Made by a program: the position numbers and the translations under genes | The notes under the pieces: generated by a model | What the model was told of the DNA's origin: nothing | Seen by the model: the letters and a program-made list of their open reading frames with translations, nothing else | Database searches by the model: none | Part shown: in pieces, positions 891 to 28,088 of the stretch | How positions within the stretch are numbered: the first letter of the stretch is position 1 | How the letters are laid out: every line of letters starts with the position of its first letter | UHGV virus genome: UHGV-0203104 | Source: a virus | DNA length: 38,800 nucleotides | Strand: one strand, 5' to 3'

Positions 891-1253
891 GGGGCTGATT
901 CTGGATTCGACGGGATTTGCGAAACCCAAGGTGCATGCCGAGGGGCGGTTGGCCTCGTAAAAAGCCGCAAAAAATAGTCGCAAACGACGAAAACTACGCT
1001 TTAGCAGCTTAATAACCTGCTTAGAGCCCTCTCTCCCTAGCCTCCGCTCTTAGGACGGGGATCAAGAGAGGTCAAACCCAAAAGAGATCGCGTGGAAGCC
1101 CTGCCTGGGGTTGAAGCGTTAAAACTTAATCAGGCTAGTTTGTTAGTGGCGTGTCCGTCCGCAGCTGGCAAGCGAATGTAAAGACTGACTAAGCATGTAG
1201 TACCGAGGATGTAGGAATTTCGGACGCGGGTTCAACTCCCGCCAGCTCCACCA
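891..1253 (+). ncRNA. ssrA: tmRNA (SsrA), 363 nt ending in CCA
   Basis: Starts GGGGCTGATTCTGGATTCGACGGG, contains the tag-reading-frame region and the tRNA-like 3' end GGTTCAACTCCCGCCAGCTCCACCA; matches E. coli ssrA as I recall it. Confidence 0.95.
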
Positions 1254-1376: not shown

Positions 1377-1859
1377 ATGGAAGAACTTCACTTTGTTTAC
1401 ATCAATGCAAATGGTCGTATCGGTGTTCACTCAATACAGAGCATCAGTTATAGCGAAAATCATATACAGGGCATTTGTAAGAACACCGATCGAATAAAAA
1501 CCTTCCGAAAAGACCGCATTCTTAAACAGTACGATTCACCAGAACAAGCCATTCAGGAATGCGCGTCATTCCTCCCCGAAAACTACTCACATCTCACTAA
1601 GCAGTCTGGTCCGAAAAAAAATACATTCGATGTGTGCTTCACCGGATTTAAGAAAGCAGATAAAGAAAGATTGGTTGATAAGGCGAATGAACAAGGATTA
1701 ACGGTAAGAACCTCTGTAACCCAAAGCCTTCAGATGCTCTGTTGCGGTTACAATGCAGGCCCATCAAAAGTATCGGCAGCCAGGATGAAAGGCACAATCA
1801 TCATAGATGAGCCTGGCTTTATACATTTTCTTGAAACGGGTGAGATCCCAGATGAATAA
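1377..1859 (+). CDS. Small cargo protein with WYL-like N-terminal region and C-terminal BRCT-like domain
   Basis: 160 aa with good RBS. N-terminal YINANGR...TFRKDRI resembles the WYL-domain signature; the C-terminal stretch FDVCFTGF...GLTVRTSV...AG.SK...IIIDE..F..FL aligns by eye to the LigA-type BRCT domain. Sits between attL and ogr, outside the conserved P2 gene set. Confidence 0.55.
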   Translation: MEELHFVYINANGRIGVHSIQSISYSENHIQGICKNTDRIKTFRKDRILKQYDSPEQAIQECASFLPENYSHLTKQSGPKKNTFDVCFTGFKKADKERLVDKANEQGLTVRTSVTQSLQMLCCGYNAGPSKVSAARMKGTIIIDEPGFIHFLETGEIPDE

Positions 1860-9087: not shown

Positions 9088-9105
9088 TGTACAGTTATTC
9101 ACACA
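9088..9105. promoter_or_regulatory. Candidate Ogr-binding site (TGT-N12-ACA) of the late promoter for the F operon
   Basis: TGTACAGTTATTCACACA lies about 85 bp upstream of the FI start codon, consistent with an activator site near -55. Confidence 0.4.
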
Positions 9106-9153: not shown

Positions 9154-9726
9154 TCAGGGGGATTCACTGCTCTTATTTGCCGGAAATTTTCTATAAATGG
9201 TAGAAACGCCCACATCAAAAATCAGTGCAATACGCTGTCTTGATTCTCCGGCCTCTAGTAAACGTCCAATCTGTGCCCACTGTTCGGTGGTCAACTTAGG
9301 ACGGCGTCCACCTACTCTGCCTTTGTCGCGAGCTGCAGCAATCCCCGCCCTGGTACGTTCAACTATCAGTTCGCGTTCCATTTCAGCCAGGGCACCCATG
9401 ACATGAAAAAAGAAACGGCCCATTGGGGTACTGGTATCAATACTGTCAGTCAGGCTTCGGAAATTCACGCCACGCTGGCGCAACTCTTCTATCAGCGTAA
9501 CAAGATGCCGCATACTGCGTCCCAACCTGTCCAGCTTCCAGACAACCAGCGTGTCTCCTGCCGATAGTGTCCTGAGTAGTTTTTTCAGCCCCGGTCTGTC
9601 GGACTTAGTGCCACTGATTTTGTCCTCAAAAATCCGCTCACATCCCGCGCAGTTCAGTGCATTACGTTGCAAATCGGTGTTCTGGTCATTTGTTGACACG
9701 CGTACATAGCCAATAAGCATGATCAT
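9154..9726 (-). CDS. Serine DNA invertase (Hin/Gin/Pin/Cin family)
   Basis: N-terminal YVRVSTNDQ catalytic-serine motif, resolvase/invertase core and C-terminal HTH (GVSTIYRKF); adjacent to the invertible tail-fibre segment. Confidence 0.9.
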   Translation of the reverse strand: MIMLIGYVRVSTNDQNTDLQRNALNCAGCERIFEDKISGTKSDRPGLKKLLRTLSAGDTLVVWKLDRLGRSMRHLVTLIEELRQRGVNFRSLTDSIDTSTPMGRFFFHVMGALAEMERELIVERTRAGIAAARDKGRVGGRRPKLTTEQWAQIGRLLEAGESRQRIALIFDVGVSTIYRKFPANKSSESP

Positions 9727-9747
9727 CCCCCTGAATAAAAACCGGAG

Positions 9748-10269
9748 ATGATGCCAGTTAGCTGTTACCTCTGCATTTTCTTAAACGTTGGTTTGGGAGA
9801 AGGCTCTGCATTACCTGTTGGTGTGCCTGTTCCATGGCCTTCAGCCACACCGCCAACAGGCTGGCTGAAATGCAACGGTGCGGCATTTTCTGCTGAAGAA
9901 TACCCGGAACTGGCAAAGGCTTATCCAACAAATAAATTACCTGATTTACGCGGTGAGTTTATTCGTGGCTGGGATGACGGGCGCGGTATTGATGCAGGAC
10001 GTGTTTTATTGAGTATTCAGGCCGGAATGCTGGAAAAGCACCGTCATCCTGTTGTCGCCAACGATGGGTATGACTCAAAAGAGGAATGGGAACTGGCGAC
10101 AATCTTCAGAAGAGCATATACGCAAGGCAGGGGGCTTGATGCTGCCGCTGCCGGAGGGAGTCTGATCCCATCACCGACACTTCATTCACGAGGGAGTATC
10201 GGTAATACTGGCGGGAATGAAACCCGTCCACGAAATATTGCATTTAACTATATCGTGAGGGCTGTATAA
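9748..10269 (+). CDS. Alternative tail-fibre C-terminal cassette (silent; fused to H after inversion)
   Basis: Track ORF 9748..10269; its first codons overlap the crossover site and encode GLGE, the same tetrapeptide encoded at the site inside H (YLGLGE); no independent promoter or RBS context. Confidence 0.6.
   Translation: MMPVSCYLCIFLNVGLGEGSALPVGVPVPWPSATPPTGWLKCNGAAFSAEEYPELAKAYPTNKLPDLRGEFIRGWDDGRGIDAGRVLLSIQAGMLEKHRHPVVANDGYDSKEEWELATIFRRAYTQGRGLDAAAAGGSLIPSPTLHSRGSIGNTGGNETRPRNIAFNYIVRAV
9776..9802. other. Invertase crossover site (gix/hix-like), left end of invertible segment
   Basis: TTCTTAAACGTTGGTTTGGGAGAAG; the core GGTTTGGGAGAAG recurs in inverted orientation at 11665-11677. 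Confidence 0.6.
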
Positions 10270-10871
10270 TGGATAACGCCGTATTAAATAGCGAGCTTAT
10301 TACCACGAAGGCGGGGAATATTACCGTCTATAACTATGATGGTGAGACGCGGGAATATATTTCTGCATCAACTGAATATCTTGCAGTGGGTGTCGGTATT
10401 CCAGCATATTCCTGTTTAGACGCTCCTGGTACATCTAAGGCTGGTTATACAATTTGCCGTTCTGTGGATTTAAAATCATGGGAATATGTGTCAGACCATC
10501 GCGGTGAAATCATCTATAACACCGAAACGGGAGATGCCAAAGAAATCACAGCACTAGGCGACTATCCCGAAAATACAACCACTATCGCCCCGTTAACGCC
10601 ATACGATAAATGGGATGGTGAAAAATGGGTGACAGATACTGAGGCACAACACGGTGCCGCAGTAGAAGCGGCAGAAGCACAGCGCCAGTCACTTATTGAT
10701 GCAGCAATGGCTTCCATCAGTCTGATTCAACTGAAATTGCAGGCCGGACGTAAACTGACGCAGGCAGAAACAACCAGACTTAACGCTGTGCTGGATTACA
10801 TTGACGCGGTGACGGCAACAGATACCAGCACCGCGCCGGATGTCATCTGGCCTGAACTGCCGGAGGCGTAG
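10269..10871 (+). CDS. Tail-fibre assembly chaperone, alternative copy
   Basis: 200 aa; C-terminus TSTAPDVIWPELP parallels the C-terminus of the convergent chaperone gene (TSSAPDIEWPTPP). Confidence 0.7.
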   Translation: MDNAVLNSELITTKAGNITVYNYDGETREYISASTEYLAVGVGIPAYSCLDAPGTSKAGYTICRSVDLKSWEYVSDHRGEIIYNTETGDAKEITALGDYPENTTTIAPLTPYDKWDGEKWVTDTEAQHGAAVEAAEAQRQSLIDAAMASISLIQLKLQAGRKLTQAETTRLNAVLDYIDAVTATDTSTAPDVIWPELPEA

Positions 10872-11295
10872 GCCATTCAATATCTGGCGCACTGGAGGTA
10901 TCAACCAGCTCCAGTGCATCCAGATAATCCAGCCACAAATTATATTGCGCCAGTTCCTCACCTTTCAGACGACCAATAGCGGCTTTACCGGGCCATTGCT
11001 TACTGTTCATGTATTCGTTGGCCTGGTTAATTAGTAGCTGTCTTTCTGATTCAGTAATTTCAATAAGCTCTTCATGCGTGGGTGGAGGAATATCTGCCCA
11101 CGCAGGCAGCCCATCATCTCCGGCAATACGGATTTTTCCTTGTGGCGGTTCAGCCATAAACTCACTGATAATATTTTGATTTACTTCCTTAGCGTCTGAT
11201 AAATCCCATCCCTCTGATTTATATTTATCAATCATATCCACAGGGAAAAAAGCATTATGCCTTGCGCTATAAACATATTCGTTCATATAAATCAC
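10843..11295 (-). CDS. Tail-fibre assembly chaperone (G-like), active orientation
   Basis: 150 aa immediately downstream of H on the same strand; Tfa-like. Confidence 0.7.
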   Translation of the reverse strand: MIYMNEYVYSARHNAFFPVDMIDKYKSEGWDLSDAKEVNQNIISEFMAEPPQGKIRIAGDDGLPAWADIPPPTHEELIEITESERQLLINQANEYMNSKQWPGKAAIGRLKGEELAQYNLWLDYLDALELVDTSSAPDIEWPTPPAVQAR

Positions 11296-11306
11296 CCTGA
11301 ATAAAA

Positions 11307-12728
11307 TTACTCACCAACAGCCCACCAACTGTAATTCATCGATACCGTGTCGCTGGTTGATGACGTTCTGTAAGCAGAATTAAAGCCGGTTAACGTTGGG
11401 CCTTCTGCAGTCATCACGAACCCTCGCCCAGCGCCTAAAGGCGCACCGCCATCACCAGAATGAGTAAGCATGGCGCAGTCCGCTTTTTTGGGGAAAGGGA
11501 TGCTGAATGTAATTCTCATTGTTTGCGTCGATAATGTCGGCGTAACCGCACCACGACCATATTGCAGGATTTTCCCGTTGGGTAATTTCATCCATCCATC
11601 ACCACTGGCAAAAGAGGCCATATCAGGTATCTGATTCGCCCCTGTCCCTACATTCCTTTTAGCTGCTTCTCCCAAACCAAGGTATGCGAGAAGACCAGCT
11701 ACATCCTTTCCACTCAAATTGGTAAGCGTATTGTCCAGCGGTTGTTTACCTGCCAGCGCATTAAGCATTGTCGTGGCAAAGTTCGGATCATTCCCCAGTG
11801 CCGCCGCCAGTTCGTTCAGTGTATCCAGTGCCGCAGGTGCAGAACCCACCATTGCTGCAATCGCTGATTTCACAAAAGCTGTAGTGGCAATCTGTGTATT
11901 GTTGACCGACTGTGCCGCAGTAGGTGCTGTTGGCGTTCCGGTGAGTGCCGGACTCGACAGTGGGGCTTTTAGTGCCAGCGCATTGTTAATAGTGGTACTG
12001 AATTTCGGGTCATTGTTAATGGCTGCGGCAATTTCTTTCAGTGTGTCCAGCGTGGCTGGCGCACCGTTAATCAGAGCAGTAATAGCGGCCTGAACAAACT
12101 CAGTGGTCGCAATCCGCGTGGTGTTATTTCCTGCTGCAGGCGTCGGCGCTTTTGGTTCTCCGGTAAATGTCGGATTATGTTTCTGCGCATACTGGGTATG
12201 AGGATCTTGTGCGGCAATGTGGTTTCTCATCTGGTCATCCACATACAGCTTTAATTCCAGGACTTCATCATCCACGTATTTACGGGTTGCCAGCACTACA
12301 GCAGGGTCGATTTTCAGGGTGATATTGTCCGTACTGCTGGTAATCAGCACCATGCGCACGGTCTGGGTGCGCCCGCTGCCTTCAGCCAGTTGCGGTTTAT
12401 AGCTTTCCGGGCAGTTTCCCACGGCAATCAATGCCCCTGACTCATCAAACAGGCCCACTTCACGTATCCACCAACCGCCCTCGTTTTCAGGGATCACCTG
12501 TTCAGCAATAATCTGGCTGCTGTTCTGCGGGTCGATATAGAGCATATTCAGCGCAGCCCGGCGTTTCTCATTTACCAGTGCACTCTGCTTTGCGTCCGGC
12601 GTCGGCAATGTTCCGCCACCATCGCCCACCGCCATATGGGTAATTTTTAAAGGCACACCGAGCGCGGCGGCGCTGGCAAGTTTCGCCGCGCCAATATCCG
12701 TCAGCAGGGTATAAAATTTTGTGCTCAT
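11307..12728 (-). CDS. H: Tail fibre protein (H homolog); C-terminal third lies inside the invertible segment
   Basis: 473 aa with repeated NDPxF / ALAxKxPL collar-like motifs; crossover site at 11664-11690 lies in-frame inside the gene. Confidence 0.85.
   Translation of the reverse strand: MSTKFYTLLTDIGAAKLASAAALGVPLKITHMAVGDGGGTLPTPDAKQSALVNEKRRAALNMLYIDPQNSSQIIAEQVIPENEGGWWIREVGLFDESGALIAVGNCPESYKPQLAEGSGRTQTVRMVLITSSTDNITLKIDPAVVLATRKYVDDEVLELKLYVDDQMRNHIAAQDPHTQYAQKHNPTFTGEPKAPTPAAGNNTTRIATTEFVQAAITALINGAPATLDTLKEIAAAINNDPKFSTTINNALALKAPLSSPALTGTPTAPTAAQSVNNTQIATTAFVKSAIAAMVGSAPAALDTLNELAAALGNDPNFATTMLNALAGKQPLDNTLTNLSGKDVAGLLAYLGLGEAAKRNVGTGANQIPDMASFASGDGWMKLPNGKILQYGRGAVTPTLSTQTMRITFSIPFPKKADCAMLTHSGDGGAPLGAGRGFVMTAEGPTLTGFNSAYRTSSTSDTVSMNYSWWAVGE
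11664..11690. other. Invertase crossover site (gix/hix-like), right end of invertible segment inside H
   Basis: CTTCTCCCAAACCAAGGTATGCGAGAA with imperfect dyad half-sites TTCTCCCAAACC / TTCTCGCATACC; inverted copy of the 9776-9802 core. Confidence 0.6.
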
Positions 12729-14270: not shown

Positions 14271-14577
14271 CGTTATTACGCCGCCCGGTCAGTCCCACCA
14301 CCATTGAACCGTCAAAATTGCTGTTAATGGTGATGGAATCCAGCGTCAGCCGTGGCTCCCAGCGACTCAGCGCCACATACACTGCCGACATGACCTGCAG
14401 GCGTAATGCCGGATTTTGTGGCTGGTCTATCAGTGCCGACAGCAGGGAACCATATTCCCGACGGGCAATGCGGCTACCCTGCGGCGTCAGCAAAATGTCC
14501 CGCACCGACTGGCGCAGATGGTCAATATCAGTAATGGCTTTACCGCTGGTATTGTTCATCCCGCTATAAAGCGTCAT
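14218..14577 (-). CDS. W: Baseplate protein W homolog (gp25-like)
   Basis: 119 aa; P2 W is about 115 aa. Confidence 0.8.
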   Translation of the reverse strand: MTLYSGMNNTSGKAITDIDHLRQSVRDILLTPQGSRIARREYGSLLSALIDQPQNPALRLQVMSAVYVALSRWEPRLTLDSITINSNFDGSMVVGLTGRRNNGVPVSLSVSTGAENGSD

Positions 14578-15152
14578 ACCGGGCCTCCGGTTGTATCGCC
14601 GCCTTTCAGGACGCCAGTATGCTGATGCGCATCAACCACGATCCCGTTAGAACTCATCGCTCCGCCGCCCTGAGTAACGCCACCATTGACCACCACTTCG
14701 CTGTTAATACGCGTGCACTCAGCCTCCAGCACAAACTCACTGGTTTTCAGGGTGATGTTATCGGCAGCCTCAATGACCATGGATTTGATGCCCCTGACAT
14801 ACCAGCGCCCGGTGGCAGGTTCGTATTCAAACCAGCCACCGTCAGGATGTTCTGTCACGCAGGCGTCCGCCGACGTCGACGGTGGTGCGAACTGATTCGA
14901 ATAGATGGCGGGCAGCGCAAAAGCTGTTTCCAGATTACCGCCCATACTCAGCAGCACCACCTGCTCACCTTCCGATGGTCGCCACCATGTCCGGGCATTC
15001 CCGGCACGCAGCGTCAGCCAGCTGATCCAGTTGGTTTCAAGGTCGCCCGTTTTCACCCGGCAAAGCCAGTTTGTCCTGTCCACTTCGGTGACTACCCCAG
15101 TGCGGATCAGGTTGGTGATAAGGCGCATGATTTCTGTTAGATTTTTGTCCAT
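14574..15152 (-). CDS. V: Baseplate spike / central hub protein V homolog
   Basis: 192 aa; N-terminus aligns to P2 V (..MIRTGxV.E.D...RV.TG.....W..W...RAG..RTWW.PS.GEQV); ends in a Gly-rich tip. Confidence 0.85.
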   Translation of the reverse strand: MDKNLTEIMRLITNLIRTGVVTEVDRTNWLCRVKTGDLETNWISWLTLRAGNARTWWRPSEGEQVVLLSMGGNLETAFALPAIYSNQFAPPSTSADACVTEHPDGGWFEYEPATGRWYVRGIKSMVIEAADNITLKTSEFVLEAECTRINSEVVVNGGVTQGGGAMSSNGIVVDAHQHTGVLKGGDTTGGPV

Positions 15153-15198
15153 ATATTAAATATGAATGAAAAAAACCATATAATCGCTTACAGTTCGT

Positions 15199-15216
15199 TG
15201 TATAAAACATGGTACA
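15199..15216. promoter_or_regulatory. TGT-N12-ACA element between V and the 15231 cargo gene (possible displaced late-promoter activator site)
   Basis: TGTATAAAACATGGTACA at 15199-15216; its spacing to the V start is about 20 bp shorter than expected for a -55 site, so the assignment is tentative. Confidence 0.25.
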
Positions 15217-15230
15217 AATAGGGAAACACA

Positions 15231-16250
15231 ATGGATTTTAAAGAATGGTTAAGCTCAAATAAAAACAGTCTTCCCGATGCAACCAGAGAAAATTTTGAAA
15301 AGCTATACTGGGAGTTCATAGACTTCAAAGCAAATGAATACATGTCGGAATTTAAAGAAAAAAAAGCAGAATTACTGGCCCAAAATGAACAAGAACATCA
15401 AAATTTCATAAAAAGACATATTAATATTTGGAGAGATGGTTTTGGATTATTAGAGTTGTTGTTAGAGTTATGTATTAATCAAGGTTCTAAATATAGTACA
15501 AGCTTACAACAAGATAAAGACACCGACACAAACAACCATTTGCAATTACTAATTAGATTACACGCAAAGGCATGTGCAATTTCTAACGAGATTTTATGTC
15601 TATTAAAAAATGGATTTCCTGACGCAGCCCATGCAAGATGGAGAGCACTGCATGAAACAAATGTAACACTACATTTCATCGACAAGCATGGTCCTAAATG
15701 CTCAGAAATATTTTTAGCACATGAAATTTATGATAGCTATTATCTAATGATGTCACATAAAAAGTATGAAAGCAGGCTTCAAGAGAAAGGGCCCAGTAAT
15801 GAAGAGGCCAGAGAATTAACAGACTTGTTCGATAAAGCCATTAAAACATATGGCAGAAGTTTTGATTCGCAATATGGTTGGGCCACACCATTTTTAACTG
15901 ATAAGAAACACAAAGCTAGCTTTAAATCAATTGAAAAAGAAGTTAAATTAGATCACATGCGCCCATATTTTAAATGGGCATGCCAAAACATCCATGTAAA
16001 TATAAAAACAATCACTAATAGCTTGTCACTACCCCATCACCTGAAGAACGTCATCAACATAGGTCCAAGTAATTTCGGATTAGTTGACCCTGCACATGCT
16101 ACAGCCCTTAGTCTTACTCAATCAACGTGCTGTCTACTGAAAAATGACTGCAACGAAGAGAATTTAATTTTCATGAATTTAATTAAACAACTATCTATAG
16201 AAATAGGGGACACATTCCTATCTATATCTAACTCAATTGAAAACAAATAA
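15231..16250 (+). CDS. AT-rich cargo gene inserted between V and S; hypothetical protein with a possible HEPN-like R-x4-H motif
   Basis: 339-aa ORF on the opposite strand to the flanking tail genes; visibly AT-rich against GC-rich neighbours; AGGG RBS 6 nt before ATG; stop codon 3 nt from the S stop codon. Contains HARWRALHE (R136-x4-H141). Confidence 0.7.
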   Translation: MDFKEWLSSNKNSLPDATRENFEKLYWEFIDFKANEYMSEFKEKKAELLAQNEQEHQNFIKRHINIWRDGFGLLELLLELCINQGSKYSTSLQQDKDTDTNNHLQLLIRLHAKACAISNEILCLLKNGFPDAAHARWRALHETNVTLHFIDKHGPKCSEIFLAHEIYDSYYLMMSHKKYESRLQEKGPSNEEARELTDLFDKAIKTYGRSFDSQYGWATPFLTDKKHKASFKSIEKEVKLDHMRPYFKWACQNIHVNIKTITNSLSLPHHLKNVINIGPSNFGLVDPAHATALSLTQSTCCLLKNDCNEENLIFMNLIKQLSIEIGDTFLSISNSIENK

Positions 16251-16253
16251 AAA

Positions 16254-16697
16254 TCAAGTTAGGTTTTTAATGAACATTCTTTCAATTAACTCAATAGATT
16301 GGACATTAAAACCTAATAACTGCCTTTTCGCATAGATGGTATAAATACCTTTTCGACTGACGCGATCGCGCAAGCCGTAATGGTGAACACGGGCAATGCG
16401 CTGCACCCTACCTTCAAACTGTACGCTGGCAGAATCGGCGCTGGCTGCAGTTTTCAGGTATTTTGTGGTGCGCAGCTTTGTAAACATCTGACGTTTGATG
16501 CGCCCCTTTTTGCTGCGTGCTGTTACCCTGCGCGGCTCATAACTGCTGCCATCTGGATTGCGCTGCATCCTGATGTTCTGCTGCTGTGTCCGGCGCAGTT
16601 CCTGCGCCAGCTGGCGCATCATGCGGCTTCTTGCGGCTGGCTCCAGATTCGCCAATAATGCACTCAGCCAGTCGTCCACCTTCTGCAATTCAGCCAC
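16254..16697 (-). CDS. S: Tail completion protein S homolog
   Basis: 147 aa; P2 S is about 150 aa; follows R. Confidence 0.8.
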   Translation of the reverse strand: MAELQKVDDWLSALLANLEPAARSRMMRQLAQELRRTQQQNIRMQRNPDGSSYEPRRVTARSKKGRIKRQMFTKLRTTKYLKTAASADSASVQFEGRVQRIARVHHYGLRDRVSRKGIYTIYAKRQLLGFNVQSIELIERMFIKNLT

Positions 16698-22136: not shown

Positions 22137-22154
22137 TGTACCGACAACCACACA
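22137..22154. promoter_or_regulatory. Candidate Ogr-binding site (TGT-N12-ACA) in the divergent O/P late promoter region
   Basis: TGTACCGACAACCACACA centred about 87 bp upstream of the O start codon. Confidence 0.4.
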
Positions 22155-22200
22155 AACCGCAGGCGGGGAAAGCCTTCATTCAAGGCTGTAGGTTTGTGCC

Positions 22201-23967
22201 ATGAACACCACACTGACACCCGCAGATCTCGATCCCCGTCGGCAGGCCATGCTGCTGTACTTTCAGGGATACCGCGTAGCCCGCATTGCTGAAATGCTGG
22301 GCGAGAAAGTTGCAACCGTTCACAGCTGGAAAAAACGCGACAAGTGGGGTGACTATGGGCCTCTGGATCAGATGCAGCTCACCACCGCCGCACGCTACTG
22401 CCAGCTCATCATGAAGGAGCACAAAGAAGGGAAAGATTTCAAAGAGATTGACCTGCTGGCGCGCCAGTCTGAGCGCCACGCGCGGATCGGCAAGTTTAAC
22501 AATGGCGGCAACGAAGCCGACTTAAACCCTAACGTCGCCAACCGCAATAAAGGCCCACGCCGTCAGCCTGAAAAGAATGTTTTCACCGATGACCAGATTG
22601 AGAAGCTGGAAAAAATTTTCCATTCCTCCATGTTCAACTACCAGCGCCACTGGTGGGAAGCCGGAAAAACCAACCGCATCCGCAACCTGCTGAAGTCACG
22701 CCAGATCGGCGCGACCTTCTATTTTGCCCGTGAAGCCCTGATTGACGCCCTGCTTACCGGACGTAACCAGATTTTCCTTTCTGCCAGTAAGGCACAGGCC
22801 CACGTCTTCAAACAGTACATCATCGACTTTGCCAAAGAAGTGGAGGTGGAGCTGAAAGGCGATCCGATAGTGCTTCCCAACGGGGCCACACTGTATTTCC
22901 TCGGCACCAATGCCCGCACTGCCCAGAGTTATCACGGTAACCTGTATCTGGATGAATATTTCTGGATACCGAAATTCCAGGAGCTGCGCAAAGTGGCTTC
23001 CGGTATGGCTATTCACAAAAAATGGCGACAGACCTATTTTTCCACGCCATCCAGCCTGACACACAGTGCTTATCCGTTCTGGTCCGGTGCGCTGTTCAAC
23101 CGTGGGCGCAACAAAGCCGATAAGGTGGACATCGACCTGTCCCACAGCAATCTGGCCCCCGGCCTGCTGTGCGCAGACGGGCAATACCGCCAGATAGTCA
23201 CCGTGGAAGATGCAGTGCGCGGCGGATGTAACCTTTTCGACCTCGATCAGTTGCGCATGGAGTACAGCCCGGACGAATACCAGAACCTGCTGATGTGCGA
23301 GTTTGTGGACGATCTCGCGTCCGTGTTCCCGCTCAGCGAGCTGCAGGCGTGCATGGTGGACAGTTGGGAAGTCTGGACCGACTTTCATGCACTGGCCCTG
23401 CGCCCGTTTGGCTGGCGCGAAGTGTGGATCGGTTATGACCCGGCAAAAGGTACGCAAAACGGCGACAGCGCCGGGTGCGTGGTGGTGGCACCGCCAGCCG
23501 TGCCGGGCGGTAAGTTCCGCATTCTTGAGCGTCACCAGTGGCGCGGGATGGACTTCCGCGCCCAGGCTGACGCCATCAAAAAACTGACTGAACAGTACAA
23601 CGTGACATACATCGGTATCGACTCAACCGGCGTCGGTCACGGGGTTTACGAGAACGTGAAAGCGTTTTTTCCTGCCGTCCGGGAGTTTGTCTACAACCCC
23701 AACGTTAAAAACGCCCTGGTACTCAAGGCCTACGACATTATTAGCCACCGCCGCCTGGAGTTTGACGCCGGGCACACCGACATAGCGCAGTCCTTTATGG
23801 CAATCCGTCGCGCCACCACTGCCAGCGGCAACCGCCCGACCTATGAAGCCAGCCGCAGCGAAGAAGCCAGCCACGCCGATCTGGCCTGGGCAACAATGCA
23901 CGCACTGTTTAACGAACCGCTGCAGGGCGAATCCGCCAATAACAGCAATATTGTGGAGATTTTTTGA
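22201..23967 (+). CDS. P: Terminase large (ATPase) subunit P homolog
   Basis: 588 aa (P2 P about 590 aa); hydrophobic-stretch D-E motif LYLDEY; divergent from O and followed by the portal gene. Confidence 0.85.
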   Translation: MNTTLTPADLDPRRQAMLLYFQGYRVARIAEMLGEKVATVHSWKKRDKWGDYGPLDQMQLTTAARYCQLIMKEHKEGKDFKEIDLLARQSERHARIGKFNNGGNEADLNPNVANRNKGPRRQPEKNVFTDDQIEKLEKIFHSSMFNYQRHWWEAGKTNRIRNLLKSRQIGATFYFAREALIDALLTGRNQIFLSASKAQAHVFKQYIIDFAKEVEVELKGDPIVLPNGATLYFLGTNARTAQSYHGNLYLDEYFWIPKFQELRKVASGMAIHKKWRQTYFSTPSSLTHSAYPFWSGALFNRGRNKADKVDIDLSHSNLAPGLLCADGQYRQIVTVEDAVRGGCNLFDLDQLRMEYSPDEYQNLLMCEFVDDLASVFPLSELQACMVDSWEVWTDFHALALRPFGWREVWIGYDPAKGTQNGDSAGCVVVAPPAVPGGKFRILERHQWRGMDFRAQADAIKKLTEQYNVTYIGIDSTGVGHGVYENVKAFFPAVREFVYNPNVKNALVLKAYDIISHRRLEFDAGHTDIAQSFMAIRRATTASGNRPTYEASRSEEASHADLAWATMHALFNEPLQGESANNSNIVEIF

Positions 23968-24674
23968 TGCCCCCAATCCCAACTAACCTCATGACTATCG
24001 CGGGACTTCCGGTGGATAGCTCTTTCTTTGCTTACCAGTATGAGTGGAACACTGGCCCAAAGAGTAGAAACCGTGTACTCACAAAAATGCGCCAGGCAGG
24101 CGCGGATTTCTTTTTTTCCTATGAAGCCCTGAACGATGCACTGCATACCGGGCGTAACCAGATTTTCCTCTGCTGCAGCACAGCATCTGCGCAGGCAATC
24201 AAAGCCTATGTATCAGCATTCTTAAGCCAGGCCGCAGCTTATACGCACACTGGAAAAATAAAATCAGGCAAAAGTCATCTGGAGCTTCCGAATGGTGCAG
24301 TAATTTATTTTACCGACCTCCGCAGTCTCACCTCCGCACTCAGTGGAAATGTTTACGTGTCAGAGTATGCCTGGAGTGAATCACCGAGAAATATGATTGC
24401 CATCGCTAAAGGGATTTCTATGCACGCACACCACCACGCCACCTACTACACCACTCCCAGCCCTAACCCAGAGGCACGGCAGGAATATAAAAAGCTATGC
24501 AGAAACAACAGCGTAACCAGCATGGTGTTCACCGCAGATGACGCAGCAGCATCTGGAGCAATGTTGTTTACTGATAACTGGCTGAACGATATGAAAAAAG
24601 AATTATCAGAAGAGGACTGGAAAATGCTGTTTATGTGCGAATGGCCTCTCGCTAGCAAGGAACTGGCAGAATGA
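23964..24674 (+). CDS. Terminase large-subunit ATPase-domain paralog with substituted Walker-B-like Asp; extra gene between P and Q
   Basis: 236 aa; start overlaps the P stop (ATGA) and stop overlaps the Q start. Aligns by eye to the central ATPase region of P (FNYQRHWW/FAYQYEW, DALLTGRNQIFLSASKAQA/DALHTGRNQIFLCCSTASA, NGATLYF/NGAVIYF, LLMCEF/LFMCEW), but GNLYLDEY of P is GNVYVSEY here. Visibly lower GC than P and Q. Confidence 0.65.
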   Translation: MMPPIPTNLMTIAGLPVDSSFFAYQYEWNTGPKSRNRVLTKMRQAGADFFFSYEALNDALHTGRNQIFLCCSTASAQAIKAYVSAFLSQAAAYTHTGKIKSGKSHLELPNGAVIYFTDLRSLTSALSGNVYVSEYAWSESPRNMIAIAKGISMHAHHHATYYTTPSPNPEARQEYKKLCRNNSVTSMVFTADDAAASGAMLFTDNWLNDMKKELSEEDWKMLFMCEWPLASKELAE

Positions 24675-25702
24675 GCAAACGTAAAAACACCAAGCAGGTA
24701 ACAGTTGGTCACGACACAAAACCAAGCAACGGCCCAACGGCTGAGGCTTTCAGCTTTGGTGATCCCATCCCCGTGCTGGACCGCCGCGAACTGCTGGACT
24801 ATGTGGAATGCGTACAGATGGATCGCTGGTATGAGCCGCCCGTCAGCTTTAATGGACTGGCGCGCACCTTCCGCGCCGCCGTGCATCACAGTTCCCCGAT
24901 TGCAGTAAAGTGCAACATTCTGACCAGTACCTATATCCCTCATCCGCTGCTCAGCCAGCAGGCTTTTTCGCGTTTTGTGCAGGACTATCTGGTATTTGGT
25001 AACGCCTACTTGGAGAAACGCACGAACCGCTTTGGTGAAGTTATCGCCCTTGAGCCAGCTTTGGCAAAATACACCCGACGCGGATTAGACCTGGATACCT
25101 ACTGGTTTGTGCAAGACGGTATGACAGCCCAGCCGTATCAGTTCACGAAAGGCAGCATTTTTCATCTGATGGAACCGGACATCAACCAGGAGATCTACGG
25201 CCTGCCAGGTTATCTCTCTGCCATCCCGTCAGCCCTGCTCAACGAGTCCGCCACACTGTTCCGCCGTAAGTATTACATCAACGGCAGCCATGCAGGTTTC
25301 ATCATGTACATGACCGATGCCGCACAGAACCAAGAAGATGTGAACAACCTCCGCAACGCAATGAAAAGCGCCAAAGGGCCAGGCAACTTCCGCAACCTGT
25401 TTATGTACTCTCCTAACGGCAAAAAGGACGGGCTTCAGATTATCCCGTTGTCAGAAGTCGCGGCGAAGGATGAGTTTCTGAATATCAAGAACGTGAGCCG
25501 GGACGACATGATGGCGGCACACCGTGTGCCGCCGCAAATGATGGGGATAATGCCTAATAATGTTGGGGGGTTTGGGGATGTGGAGAAGGCTAGTAAGGTT
25601 TTTGTGATAAATGAATTAATTCCTTTGCAAAAACGATTTATGGAAATAAACGCATGGCTCGGGGAGAAACTTATAGAATTTTCTCCATATGAGCTTAACT
25701 AA
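24671..25702 (+). CDS. Q: Portal protein Q homolog
   Basis: 343 aa (P2 Q about 344 aa); contains the conserved P2-family portal segment PLSEVAAKDEFLNIKNVSRDDMMAAHRVPPQMMGIMP. Confidence 0.9.
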   Translation: MSKRKNTKQVTVGHDTKPSNGPTAEAFSFGDPIPVLDRRELLDYVECVQMDRWYEPPVSFNGLARTFRAAVHHSSPIAVKCNILTSTYIPHPLLSQQAFSRFVQDYLVFGNAYLEKRTNRFGEVIALEPALAKYTRRGLDLDTYWFVQDGMTAQPYQFTKGSIFHLMEPDINQEIYGLPGYLSAIPSALLNESATLFRRKYYINGSHAGFIMYMTDAAQNQEDVNNLRNAMKSAKGPGNFRNLFMYSPNGKKDGLQIIPLSEVAAKDEFLNIKNVSRDDMMAAHRVPPQMMGIMPNNVGGFGDVEKASKVFVINELIPLQKRFMEINAWLGEKLIEFSPYELN

Positions 25703-25751: not shown

Positions 25752-28088
25752 TTACAAATATGTATTGCTATGTAGAGATGTGTTTATTCCATCTTCTATC
25801 TCAATTTTTGACGAAGCATACTCATCATTCGCACTATCATCAATATCAAACTCATCTTGTAGATGAAGTGACTCATTTAACGGTCTATAAAACTCACCCA
25901 TCATCATTTTGTAATGGGCAGTATGCTCACTACACTCAAATATCTTCTGAAAAACAATTAAATATTTTTGCACAGACTCCGTATCTAAATTCATATAAAG
26001 ATCATCACCTGCAAAATGAGAACCATCATTAATCCATGACACTAAAGATTTAAATATGATTTTTTCATCACCATAAAAATGACATTCAAGCTTCCTAATA
26101 TCCATCCCACCTAATATCTTAAAGTAATTCTCCAAAATCCTTCGCATTGTATTTTGTATAGTATTATTATTAATATCTGTTCTTCTCAATTCGCACCAGA
26201 GCAAATCATAAGACGTTTTTATTGGGTTTGATTCGCACTTTTCAAGATATGAGACCTTCCCTTTTTTCCTTACAATCCAAAAAGTCTCCTCTTTCATTGC
26301 TTGATTACCGGATCTTTTAGTATTAAAAGTCAACTCTTTATGAAAATAAATATTATGTGTAAGGAATATAATTTGCTTAATATTTCCTTCATCCTTACGA
26401 ACATCCTCCATTAAATCTTTAATCAACGAACTTACAATAAACAGAATATCACTATCTAAACTTGAAATTGGATCATCAAATACTACAACACGATCATCTA
26501 AAACACCTGATGCATTATCACTCCCTCTAACAAGGCTATAAAAATACAAAAAAGTGATAAATGTCTTTTCTCCCTCGCTAAGGGTTGTACGAGCATTATC
26601 TCCACTATCTCTCACTATCATATAATGCTTTTTATCTTCGGAGGGTTTTAAGTAAAAATTTTTGAAGCCATAAGAATCCAGAATCTTGTTAATTTTTGTA
26701 ATAGTTGGAAGAGTACTGGTTTTATTAGACTCAATTGCCTCAATAGCCGAAGCATTTAACATTAACTTCTTTTTGTCTTCCTCTAACCCAGATTTAAGCC
26801 CTTGTAACTTCCTATTAAATTTATCAGATTCGCTACGGTAAGAAGTTATTTCAGACTTTAACTCCACCTTTACGATATATGCCCATATCTGATTAGAAAG
26901 ATTACTAGCCTCTACCTTTCTATTACTGTGTATTTTGTTATTATTATCTATCAATAGATTTGAATCATTCAAAAAAGAAATAAAATCATCAACAACTTCA
27001 CTTAAGTCACTAAAATGAACTGATTCACTTAAAAAATTGCGTTTATTTTTTGCCAATTCAAAATTCTTGTTTAATTCAGATAATACTATCTTAGCCTTAT
27101 CCTCAAACACTTCATAGTTTATGAATGGAGATTTAATCGCCCTTATATCATCTATCGCCTGCAAGATATTATTAAGTTGATGTTCATATTGTAAAACCAA
27201 TGCATCGATTTCTCTTTTTTTTAACTCATATGTTTTATCAAAATATGATGATAGATTATCAAATATATTATCATTTACATCCTGCTGGCAGAATGGGCAC
27301 TTGGGATTAGATTTACTGAAATATGTTAAACCTTCCTTAACCCAATCACTGTTATTGAGCATTGTAATTAAGTCTGAAACACTAACGTCTTTTTTCCCTA
27401 GAATACGCTCACTCCAAATCTCCCTACTCAAAATATCATCTATCCCATTGAAGGATGGAATTGTAATTGATACATGTGATGTCAATTCAGTAGAAAAAAC
27501 AATTTTTGCTTTCTCAATTAGCTCTGCTATTGAGCAAACTTCTGATGTGTTATTTTCATACTCAGCCAACACTCTAGCTTTAAATTTTTCACTACTATTC
27601 CTTAATCCCTCAAAAGCCTTTGAGAACACATTATCATGTTTTACTTTTTGCTTCCAACATGAATCTTTAAAAGATTTTTCATGGTCTTCGATTTGTTTAA
27701 CAACGCCTAATATATTATCACCACCATCTATTAGCTTTTCCTTTGCTATAATAGATTCTATTAGCTTATTTTTTTCTTCTTCAAGAGATATTAATTTCTC
27801 TTCATCCTCCTTAAGATCGCTACCAAGGGTAAATACACCTTTAATTTTATCTTGACTAAAATTTCTTTCAACAAAATCTTTATTATATACGTAGCTTATT
27901 AAAGATATATTATTTTTCCATTTAATCGGACATGTTGGATATTGTTCAGGGTCATTAATAATTTTACTTATAGTTGTTTTACCTGCACCATTAGCTCCAT
28001 ATAAATAGTTAAATTTAGAAAGCCCATGTAAAAGCTGAGTAGGGCCATTATATGAGCCTACTTTGTCAATAACTACCTCTTCAATCAT
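25752..28088 (-). CDS. RloC/PrrC-like (AAA_13-type) ATPase with zinc hook and putative C-terminal anticodon-nuclease-like region
   Basis: 778 aa, strongly AT-rich. Walker A GANGAGKTT (res 31-39), CPFC zinc-hook-like motif (264-267), ABC-signature-like LSEGEK (503-508), Walker B VVVFDDP (534-540), LTHN (576-579), and C-terminal R-x3-E plus downstream His (RRILE 649-653, H670/H691). Sits between Q and the cos-like site. Confidence 0.6.
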   Translation of the reverse strand: MIEEVVIDKVGSYNGPTQLLHGLSKFNYLYGANGAGKTTISKIINDPEQYPTCPIKWKNNISLISYVYNKDFVERNFSQDKIKGVFTLGSDLKEDEEKLISLEEEKNKLIESIIAKEKLIDGGDNILGVVKQIEDHEKSFKDSCWKQKVKHDNVFSKAFEGLRNSSEKFKARVLAEYENNTSEVCSIAELIEKAKIVFSTELTSHVSITIPSFNGIDDILSREIWSERILGKKDVSVSDLITMLNNSDWVKEGLTYFSKSNPKCPFCQQDVNDNIFDNLSSYFDKTYELKKREIDALVLQYEHQLNNILQAIDDIRAIKSPFINYEVFEDKAKIVLSELNKNFELAKNKRNFLSESVHFSDLSEVVDDFISFLNDSNLLIDNNNKIHSNRKVEASNLSNQIWAYIVKVELKSEITSYRSESDKFNRKLQGLKSGLEEDKKKLMLNASAIEAIESNKTSTLPTITKINKILDSYGFKNFYLKPSEDKKHYMIVRDSGDNARTTLSEGEKTFITFLYFYSLVRGSDNASGVLDDRVVVFDDPISSLDSDILFIVSSLIKDLMEDVRKDEGNIKQIIFLTHNIYFHKELTFNTKRSGNQAMKEETFWIVRKKGKVSYLEKCESNPIKTSYDLLWCELRRTDINNNTIQNTMRRILENYFKILGGMDIRKLECHFYGDEKIIFKSLVSWINDGSHFAGDDLYMNLDTESVQKYLIVFQKIFECSEHTAHYKMMMGEFYRPLNESLHLQDEFDIDDSANDEYASSKIEIEDGINTSLHSNTYL

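Follow-up and report, generated by a model that had tools for sequence, protein, structure and literature searches.

What is an AT-rich gene doing between two GC-rich tail genes of a P2-like prophage, on the strand opposite to both? The question is posed by the UHGV virus genome UHGV-0203104, a stretch of 38,800 nucleotides (nt; the window, by which we mean the whole stretch) that holds a P2/186-like Escherichia coli prophage integrated beside the tmRNA gene ssrA, and in which a single gene, hereafter the cargo gene, separates the baseplate gene V from the tail gene S. As judged from its sequence and those of its relatives, the cargo gene is best explained as a moron cassette that occupies the orf30 (S-V) variable site of this prophage. 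Its product belongs to the Pfam family DUF5677, and the idea that it acts as a single-protein abortive-infection nuclease (i.e., the defence reading as a whole) strikes us as evenly poised between right and wrong. The genes at issue are the following:

14574..15152, minus strand: baseplate spike gene V (Pfam Phage_base_V and Apex), the conserved left flank
15231..16250, plus strand: cargo gene, encoding a DUF5677 protein of 339 amino acids (aa) from an ATG start, opposed in direction to the late tail genes
16254..16697, minus strand: tail-completion gene S (Pfam Phage_tail_S), the right flank
16348..16697, minus strand: conserved part of S, recognised by Pfam Phage_tail_S and by regained homology to relatives

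The start codons of V and of the cargo gene lie 78 nt apart, and the stop codons of the convergent cargo and S genes are separated by 3 nt (16251-16253). The GC content of the cargo open reading frame (ORF) is 33.6%, against 56.5% for V and 56.6% for codons 1-116 of S. An earlier note on this DNA had described the ORF coordinates, this spacing, the AT-richness, the string HARWRALHE in the product (giving R136 and H141) and the position of a TGT-N12-ACA element, all of which hold on recomputation; we add that the AT-rich tract, for which no extent had been given, reaches ~16347, past 16253. The same note had seen in it a horizontally acquired AT-rich accessory gene, a view now backed both by the compositional contrast (33.6% vs ~56.5% GC) and by its presence or absence in relatives. 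A chance ORF was considered as well and ruled out by the probability of a 339-codon open frame at the composition of the cargo (~1.6e-12) together with the conservation of the family. RefSeq labels the identical gene as a DUF5677 domain-containing protein, and the allele of the window was found in 4 of 5,426 complete E. coli genomes, each time at the S-V site.

The S-V junction of P2 had been taken to hold only the late promoter of the V operon; the P2 record, however, annotates Orf30 at this very junction (261 aa, non-essential, on the opposite strand), with the activator-binding site of pV just beyond it. The cargo product shows no homology to P2 Orf30 (BLASTP best E 6.8). The orf30 locus is listed, along with the TO and Z regions, as one of the three usual places where P2-like phages carry non-P2, presumed horizontally acquired genes (PMC3091744), and in phage R18C it is replaced by a different ORF (PMC6823313). 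Recent hotspot studies focused on the old/tin and fun(Z) sites. The S-V position is thus already known, though little studied, and the statement that it is not a known cargo hotspot has to be given up, considering that the orf30 region was named as a foreign-gene site in both of these papers and that our survey shows a high turnover of its content.

This turnover is already visible among phages whose flanks are 95-96% identical to those of the window, since 500465-1 has an empty junction of 68 base pairs (bp), Cartapus a 176-aa gene, for which (as for P2 Orf30) Pfam gave no match, and Kp4865-2 a 503-aa P-loop protein. On a broader scale, the comparison of junctions across P2-like relatives that the earlier note had suggested was carried out on 80 IMG/VR loci with an S protein, of which the 76 with both S and V were counted. 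The site proved to be variably occupied (empty in 46/76, filled in 30/76), the occupied loci holding at least 13 different single genes (209-610 aa, all 31-37% GC), with the cargo opposite to S and V in 13 of the 14 distinct occupied configurations examined. PADLOC recognises three of the S-V cargos, namely an ApeA-like HEPN protein (584 aa, RNNIVH), the FRG-domain protein PDC-S15 (311 aa) and the KAP NTPase PDC-S49 (610 aa). These and other cargos occupy the S-V intervals of relatives (~5390..7390 of L029, L040, L049, L069, L070, L072 and L083), where the 503-aa P-loop protein is encoded on the same strand as S and V, and three cargos without annotation carry an R-x4-H of RNxxxH-like form near the C-terminus (449 aa, RNIIIH; 386 aa, RDKIAH; 304 aa, RHSLFH).

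We conclude that the orf30 site acts, as far as the compared loci tell, as a real hotspot with defence-type cargo, which is new, and there are hints that it may favour solo HEPN-type proteins. By analogy with the empty-site relatives and with the 'nonessential' remark on P2 Orf30, the cargo gene would be dispensable for phage growth. The alternative that the gene encodes a structural or host-range protein conserved at the S-V position of P2-like phages, which the earlier note had named as the finding that would speak against it, found no support and is refuted by the occupancy survey: 46 of the 76 relatives have nothing at the site and the rest have unrelated genes, the gene is present in just 4 of the 5,426 E. 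coli genomes, and its family is also encountered in satellites, in siphovirus-type prophages and in a chromosome without phage genes. We therefore give this explanation next to no chance.

What moves at this site is more than the gene itself. The exchanged segment and its parts are:

~15140..16347, no strand assigned: exchangeable AT-rich cassette, bounded by the conserved body of V on one side and by codon 116 of S on the other (32.6% GC over 15153-16347)
15153..15230, no strand assigned: shared 78-bp control region, with the core V late promoter on the minus strand and a presumed cargo promoter on the plus strand
15199..15216, no strand assigned: TGT-N12-ACA, the late-activator site (Ogr-type) of the V operon, conserved in position and P2-like in geometry
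16254..16347, minus strand: C-terminal (last 31) codons of S, carried on the cassette (27.7% GC) and varying with each cargo

The edges of the cassette were drawn by blastn against the phages that are 95-96% identical in the flanks: near-identity is lost at 15139-15153 (the V start codon) and regained at 16348, so that one unit is exchanged which covers the 78-bp control region of V in full, the cargo gene itself and the 31 C-terminal codons of S. Both the promoter region of V and the activator site in it thus fall between these two edges; the insertion did not, as had been supposed, land just upstream of the activator site. On the other side, the S proteins of the near relatives are ~99% identical up to residue 116 and completely divergent thereafter, and among the P2-resident DUF5677 loci identity amounts to 61-92% over S 1-116 but to 29-42% over the S tail. 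The S tails of the window (16254..16347) and of the S genes of L001, L002, L003, L011 and L020 keep only a Y, an R and an LLG motif. Judging from these alignments, the last ~31 residues of the essential S protein must tolerate almost any sequence. The observation that the cassettes bring along both the V promoter and the S C-terminus is new, and an own V promoter and an own S end for each cassette provide a concrete clue to how cargo may be exchanged while the late operons are spared.

The assignment of the TGT-N12-ACA element deserves some care, as the bare pattern does not exceed chance in the window as a whole (7 found vs 9.4 expected) and it is thus solely through its conserved position that it carries weight. 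The distance from the element to the V start codon is 46 nt in 6/6 aligned relatives (the empty-site phage included), its centre lies 55.5 bp from the V start, equal to the annotated P2 activator site, and in six relatives conservation within the V control region is limited to the TGT-N12-ACA half-sites and to their spacing from the V start. The pattern recurs at 9088..9105, upstream of the sheath gene FI, and within 22137..22212 (at 22137/22195), where the O (scaffold) and P (terminase) operons diverge; it is here that the other three late promoters are expected. From its conserved position and geometry, and from the same pattern at the expected places of the other late promoters, it follows that the element at 15199-15216 is the late-activator site of the V promoter and travels with the cassette. 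In four alleles the start codon of the cargo gene follows this site by 14-15 nt, hence any promoter of the cargo gene must overlap the V promoter region. Such a promoter would be placed in 15153..15230, where a TATAAT (15179-15184) and a ribosome-binding site, AGGGA (15220-15224), are candidate signals.

To which family does the cargo product belong, and how widely is it spread? Residues 106-266 match DUF5677 (PF18928) at E 5.8e-28, with 98.5 bits against a gathering cut-off of 27.1, and the same family is matched by all 35 aligned homologues; NCBIfam gave no match for the cargo product, and PHROGs matched it to a family of unknown function only. DUF5677 is large, amounting to 4,554 clusters (50% identity, E<=1e-3) in 1.84 billion representatives, and its members, mostly stand-alone proteins of 340-430 aa, range from Enterobacteria to Bacillus and haloarchaea-like sequences. 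Longer members (P0146, 633 aa; P0185, 671 aa; P0191, 840 aa) have N-terminal extensions, which say little about function, one being a fusion to an NTPase_1 P-loop domain and the rest being unknown extensions without Pfam match. The family signature is situated as follows:

15636..15656, plus strand: RWRxLHE (R136-W-R-A-L-H141-E142), the near-invariant signature of DUF5677

The R-x4-H pattern to which the earlier note had drawn attention is real and nearly invariant across the family. In an alignment of 32 sequences (down to 22% identity) the residues W67, L124, G128, D131, A133, R136, W137, R138, L140, E142, W217, H255, G278 and G283 are invariant, H111 and H141 are nearly so (H141 in 31/32), and D-x4-RWRxx[H/Y]E fits 300 of 312 family members (H in 294, Y in 6). 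A zinc site made of H111, C115 and H141 was also considered, and ruled out by the lack of conservation of C115 in the Bacillus branch.

At the S-V site itself we encountered five diverged alleles (~50-55% identical, all in the same orientation), carried by P2-like prophages of Salmonella, Enterobacter and Lelliottia as well as by metagenome sequences. In these five loci the flanking W, V, S(1-116) and R are 61-96% identical and the DUF5677 proteins 46-55% overall, an average that hides large differences between the parts of the protein: 21-35% in the N-terminal 95 residues, 58-68% in the core and 30-50% in the C-terminal helices. Such a pattern reads as a conserved, catalytic-looking core set between fast-changing termini. 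Outside P2-like prophages, a lambdoid prophage of Klebsiella has a homologue behind its replication genes, an integrase/AlpA/D5-primase island of Enterobacter has one at its cargo end, and a P4-like satellite of Serratia has one adjoining its primase; SPbeta-like prophages of Bacillus carry homologues close to arbitrium genes, and one further homologue lies in a small chromosomal islet of Shewanella without phage genes. No partner gene is conserved across these contexts (P2-like, lambdoid, island, satellite, SPbeta-like, islet). In the Enterobacter islands (L005-L010, gene 9200..11533) the gene after the homologue encodes a protein of 777 aa that ends in a SEC-C motif; this protein is split into two ORFs in one variant and is not found beside other homologues.

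The fold of the protein was approached by an AlphaFold2 model built from 35 sequences, which is all-helical and has a pLDDT of 91.7. Its parts that bear on the HEPN question are:

15522..15719, plus strand: helices aa 98-126 and 130-163, the probable first alpha-hairpin of an HEPN-like four-helix bundle
16083..16244, plus strand: helices aa 285-306 and 309-338 (from predicted secondary structure), the probable second hairpin, variable in sequence

When aa 96-339 were modelled separately, ~15 of the top 20 structural matches fell in the HEPN/KNTase_C group. The top structural match is AF0298 (PDB 2hsb), at a sequence identity of 6-7%, and HEPN domains come first in two independent models. With aa 1-95 removed, 100-108 residues still align to HEPN domains, which argues for a bundle built from the helices 98-126, 130-163, 285-306 and 309-338. 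The predicted fold thus contains an HEPN-like four-helix bundle, made of two alpha-hairpins and an insert between helices 2 and 3. The modelled insert has 120 residues and follows the second bundle helix, the right place for an HEPN insert. In the HEPN superfamily an insert between helices 2 and 3 is frequent and helix 2 bears a conserved acidic residue, the canonical motif is found where helix 3 ends or where the helix 3-4 loop begins, and the residue after the arginine is usually (typically, not obligatorily) N, D or H (PMC3710099). That DUF5677 is a large family whose core, as modelled, is HEPN-like constitutes a further new result.

We favour the reading that the cargo product is a solo abortive-infection effector because it comes from a high-turnover site shared with defence candidates and its family recurs in four kinds of mobile elements, and because a solo architecture coincides with the described pattern of diversification and with an HEPN-like fold that holds an invariant R/H/E cluster. 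If so, the cargo gene would be expressed from the prophage in the lysogen, by a promoter overlapping the V late-promoter region, and the DUF5677 protein would rest as an inactive oligomer until a component of a superinfecting phage, sensed via the variable terminal helices, activated it. The activated protein would act as a nuclease, most likely on RNA or tRNA by analogy with HepS, DARNA and ApeA (compared below), and the infection would be aborted. In the late phase of the prophage itself, read-through of the S transcript and the late activator on the shared promoter region would turn the cargo gene down. A bolder version of the idea, in which DUF5677 is a new and widespread family of solo abortive-infection nucleases, with an HEPN-type bundle whose R/H/E cluster is shifted to the first hairpin (or whose bundle is permuted) and hypervariable terminal helices that serve as phage sensor, and in which the S-V junction is a dedicated hotspot for solo effectors exchanged together with the V late promoter and the S C-terminus, is put forward as a tentative proposal that we think will more probably fail than hold.

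A number of results weigh against the nuclease reading and are best taken together. PADLOC-DB 2.0 (including ApeA, the PD-T7/PD-T4 series and the PDC candidates) returned 0 families at E<=1, no PDB chain was matched by single sequence or by profile, Foldseek against PDB found nothing (best E 0.16), and among the HEPN families of Pfam there was none at E<=1 for the cargo product and none at E<=10 for the 35 members. With the modelled helices mapped in sequential order, RWRxLHE would occupy the first turns of helix 2, in the first hairpin and with only one helix (98-126) before it, so that it would share its end of the bundle with the canonical HEPN site but sit on the neighbouring helix; the arginine is followed by the invariant W137, at the place where HEPN RNases typically have N, D or H; and ~2% of the family members have Y in place of H141. 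A DUF5677 gene (from a Bacillota dataset) was among nine candidates tested in Enterococcus faecalis and was not among the five that protected against six phages. Lastly, a consensus scan of 14900-16600 revealed neither a full sigma-70 site upstream of the cargo gene nor a terminator between the convergent cargo and S genes. The HEPN reading of the earlier note is accordingly retained for the R-x4-H pattern and for the modelled bundle, and lacks support from HEPN or defence profiles, from the residue after the arginine and from the hairpin in which the motif would sit; in the same way, the profile and structure searches it had suggested placed HEPN/KNTase_C domains first for the aa 96-339 model and came back empty from PDB and from the Pfam HEPN families. 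As two typical HEPN features fail or are in doubt, we do not file the cargo product as an HEPN RNase, though it may still work like one; that it uses the canonical HEPN RNase chemistry is, in our opinion, somewhat doubtful.

The points just listed lead directly to a first rival, namely that the protein is a defence or conflict protein on an HEPN-like scaffold and not a canonical HEPN RNase, in which the invariant H111, D131, R136, R138, H141, E142, W217 and H255 form some other active or ligand site (e.g., that of a metal-dependent hydrolase or of a nucleotide-binding sensor) and the R-x4-H is coincidental. A motif lodged in the first hairpin and not at the end of helix 3, a tryptophan (W137) where HEPN RNases are polar, tyrosine for H141 in 6/300 members and the failure of every HEPN profile would all fit such a protein, as would its three conserved histidines and the many conserved residues in the 164-284 insert, and alternative sites have already been proposed for AF0298-type and AbiV HEPN proteins (PMC3710099). 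We nevertheless consider it unlikely, given that in two independent models HEPN domains clearly lead the structural matches and that R, H and an acidic residue are the set used by metal-independent RNases. The placement of the motif, moreover, might be reconciled with the canonical site: since the two hairpins of the HEPN bundle are alike and the KEN domain shows a circularly permuted HEPN arrangement (PMC3710099), a permuted mapping is possible, and a KEN-like circular permutation may bring the motif close to the junction of helices 3 and 4.

Other rivals dispute the defensive role itself. The cargo gene could be an accessory gene for lysogenic conversion, for host physiology or for the aid of the phage (counter-defence, superinfection control), as would suit P2 orf30, which sits at the same site without known function, the missing PADLOC match, the failure of the tested DUF5677 gene to protect E. 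faecalis, and the fact that hotspots also hold non-defence cargo (e.g., the plasmid-partition genes in the Q-A hotspot). To our mind this is improbable, considering that the family recurs in defence-rich sites of four kinds of mobile elements, that its neighbours in kind at the same site are ApeA, FRG and KAP candidates, and that its termini diversify fast around a conserved catalytic-looking core. The cargo gene is also encoded opposite to the late operons, as are old, tin and fun(Z) of P2, and in the literature 6 of 8 loci of unknown function from P4 hotspots protected when tested. Still less can be said for an addiction module or selfish toxin by which cassette or prophage would be stabilised: HEPN-like proteins often act as toxins (PMC3710099), yet the intervals to the neighbours (3 nt and 78 nt) leave no space for a partner gene, the adjacent co-oriented partner by which type II toxin-antitoxin systems are recognised is absent (S and V lie on the other strand), no neighbour is conserved across the homologue contexts, and the site is often empty in close relatives, hence loss is tolerated. 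We regard this explanation as very unlikely.

Should the DUF5677 protein prove defensive, the solo HEPN-type immunity proteins (HepS, DARNA, ApeA), a group that is only now being resolved, would gain a large and still unnamed family, and DUF5677 would represent a variant with its conserved motif away from the textbook HEPN site; the neglected orf30 site would at the same time join old/tin and fun(Z) as a third site from which P2-like phages yield defence genes. If it is not defensive, the cargo gene would be a common moron without known function, at a site already described.

Elsewhere in the window, the classical old/tin hotspot between the portal and replication genes holds a 778-aa AAA_13 ATPase (25752..28088, minus strand) that matches PADLOC PDC-S06 at E 1.5e-266 and, more weakly, the LmuB and PrrC models, which gives the prophage a second candidate for defence. 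An extra ORF of 236 aa with a second Terminase_6N ATPase domain (23964..24674, plus strand) is inserted between P, the full-length terminase gene (22201..23967), and Q, the portal gene (24671..25702), overlapping each by 4 nt; it is annotated in RefSeq as well, and P2 lacks a gene at this place. In the fun(Z) region, a resolvase-type invertase (9154..9726, minus strand) stands beside tail-fibre/fibre-assembly segments (9748..10871, plus strand, and 10843..11295, minus strand), and the whole (9154..11295) looks like an invertible host-range switch, near which RefSeq annotates a truncated tail-fibre gene. The ssrA tmRNA gene (891..1253) directly adjoins the prophage end, and between it and ogr lies a 160-aa ORF (1377..1859) with no Pfam match and a weak PADLOC match to PDC-S48.

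Among the known systems, the solo HEPN abortive-infection protein HepS, from the Salmonella prophage Gifsy-1 (PMC13043305), resembles the cargo product in being a single partnerless gene at a prophage accessory site, and the Klebsiella DUF5677 homologue, located after replication genes, occupies the same kind of site as HepS does in Gifsy-1 (PMC13043305). The two differ in that HepS homologues are shorter than 250 aa and have R100-H105, whereas DUF5677 proteins are ~340 aa long, with a 120-residue insert and long terminal helices, and in that activity, trigger and structure are experimental for HepS, while DUF5677 is known here from sequence and models. HepS (STM14_3211) was compared with the cargo product by description and length; no sequence or fold match in PDB was labelled HepS, and the LT2 Gifsy-1 record holds a different cargo and no protein with R100-x4-H105. 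DARNA (PD-T7-3, a tRNA nuclease of the HEPN type activated by single-stranded DNA; bioRxiv 10.64898/2026.02.22.705581) and ApeA are likewise all-helical single proteins, composed of an HEPN domain and a helical domain of unknown fold and carried in mobile-element hotspots of E. coli, an ApeA-like gene even at the S-V site of a relative; unlike them, the cargo product is missed by the PADLOC models (including the PD-T7 series and ApeA), and DARNA has its HEPN domain at the N-terminus, with a canonical R117-x4-H122. By the sequence tests applied, the cargo product would thus be none of HepS, DARNA and ApeA, the comparison with HepS being by description only.

The AF0298-type HEPN proteins (PDB 2hsb) and AbiV are similar in the proposed use of a non-canonical histidine from outside the usual motif (PMC3710099), and dissimilar in sequence (6-7% identity, no profile match), in domain size (~125-200 aa) and in company, since many are paired with nucleotidyltransferases and no such partner stands beside the cargo gene. 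Finally, the P2 orf30 region shares with our locus the S-V position, the opposite strand, the low GC content, the single gene and a content that varies between relatives; it differs in that its Orf30 is unrelated to the cargo product, and in that here the exchanged unit was found to include the V promoter region and the C-terminus of S.

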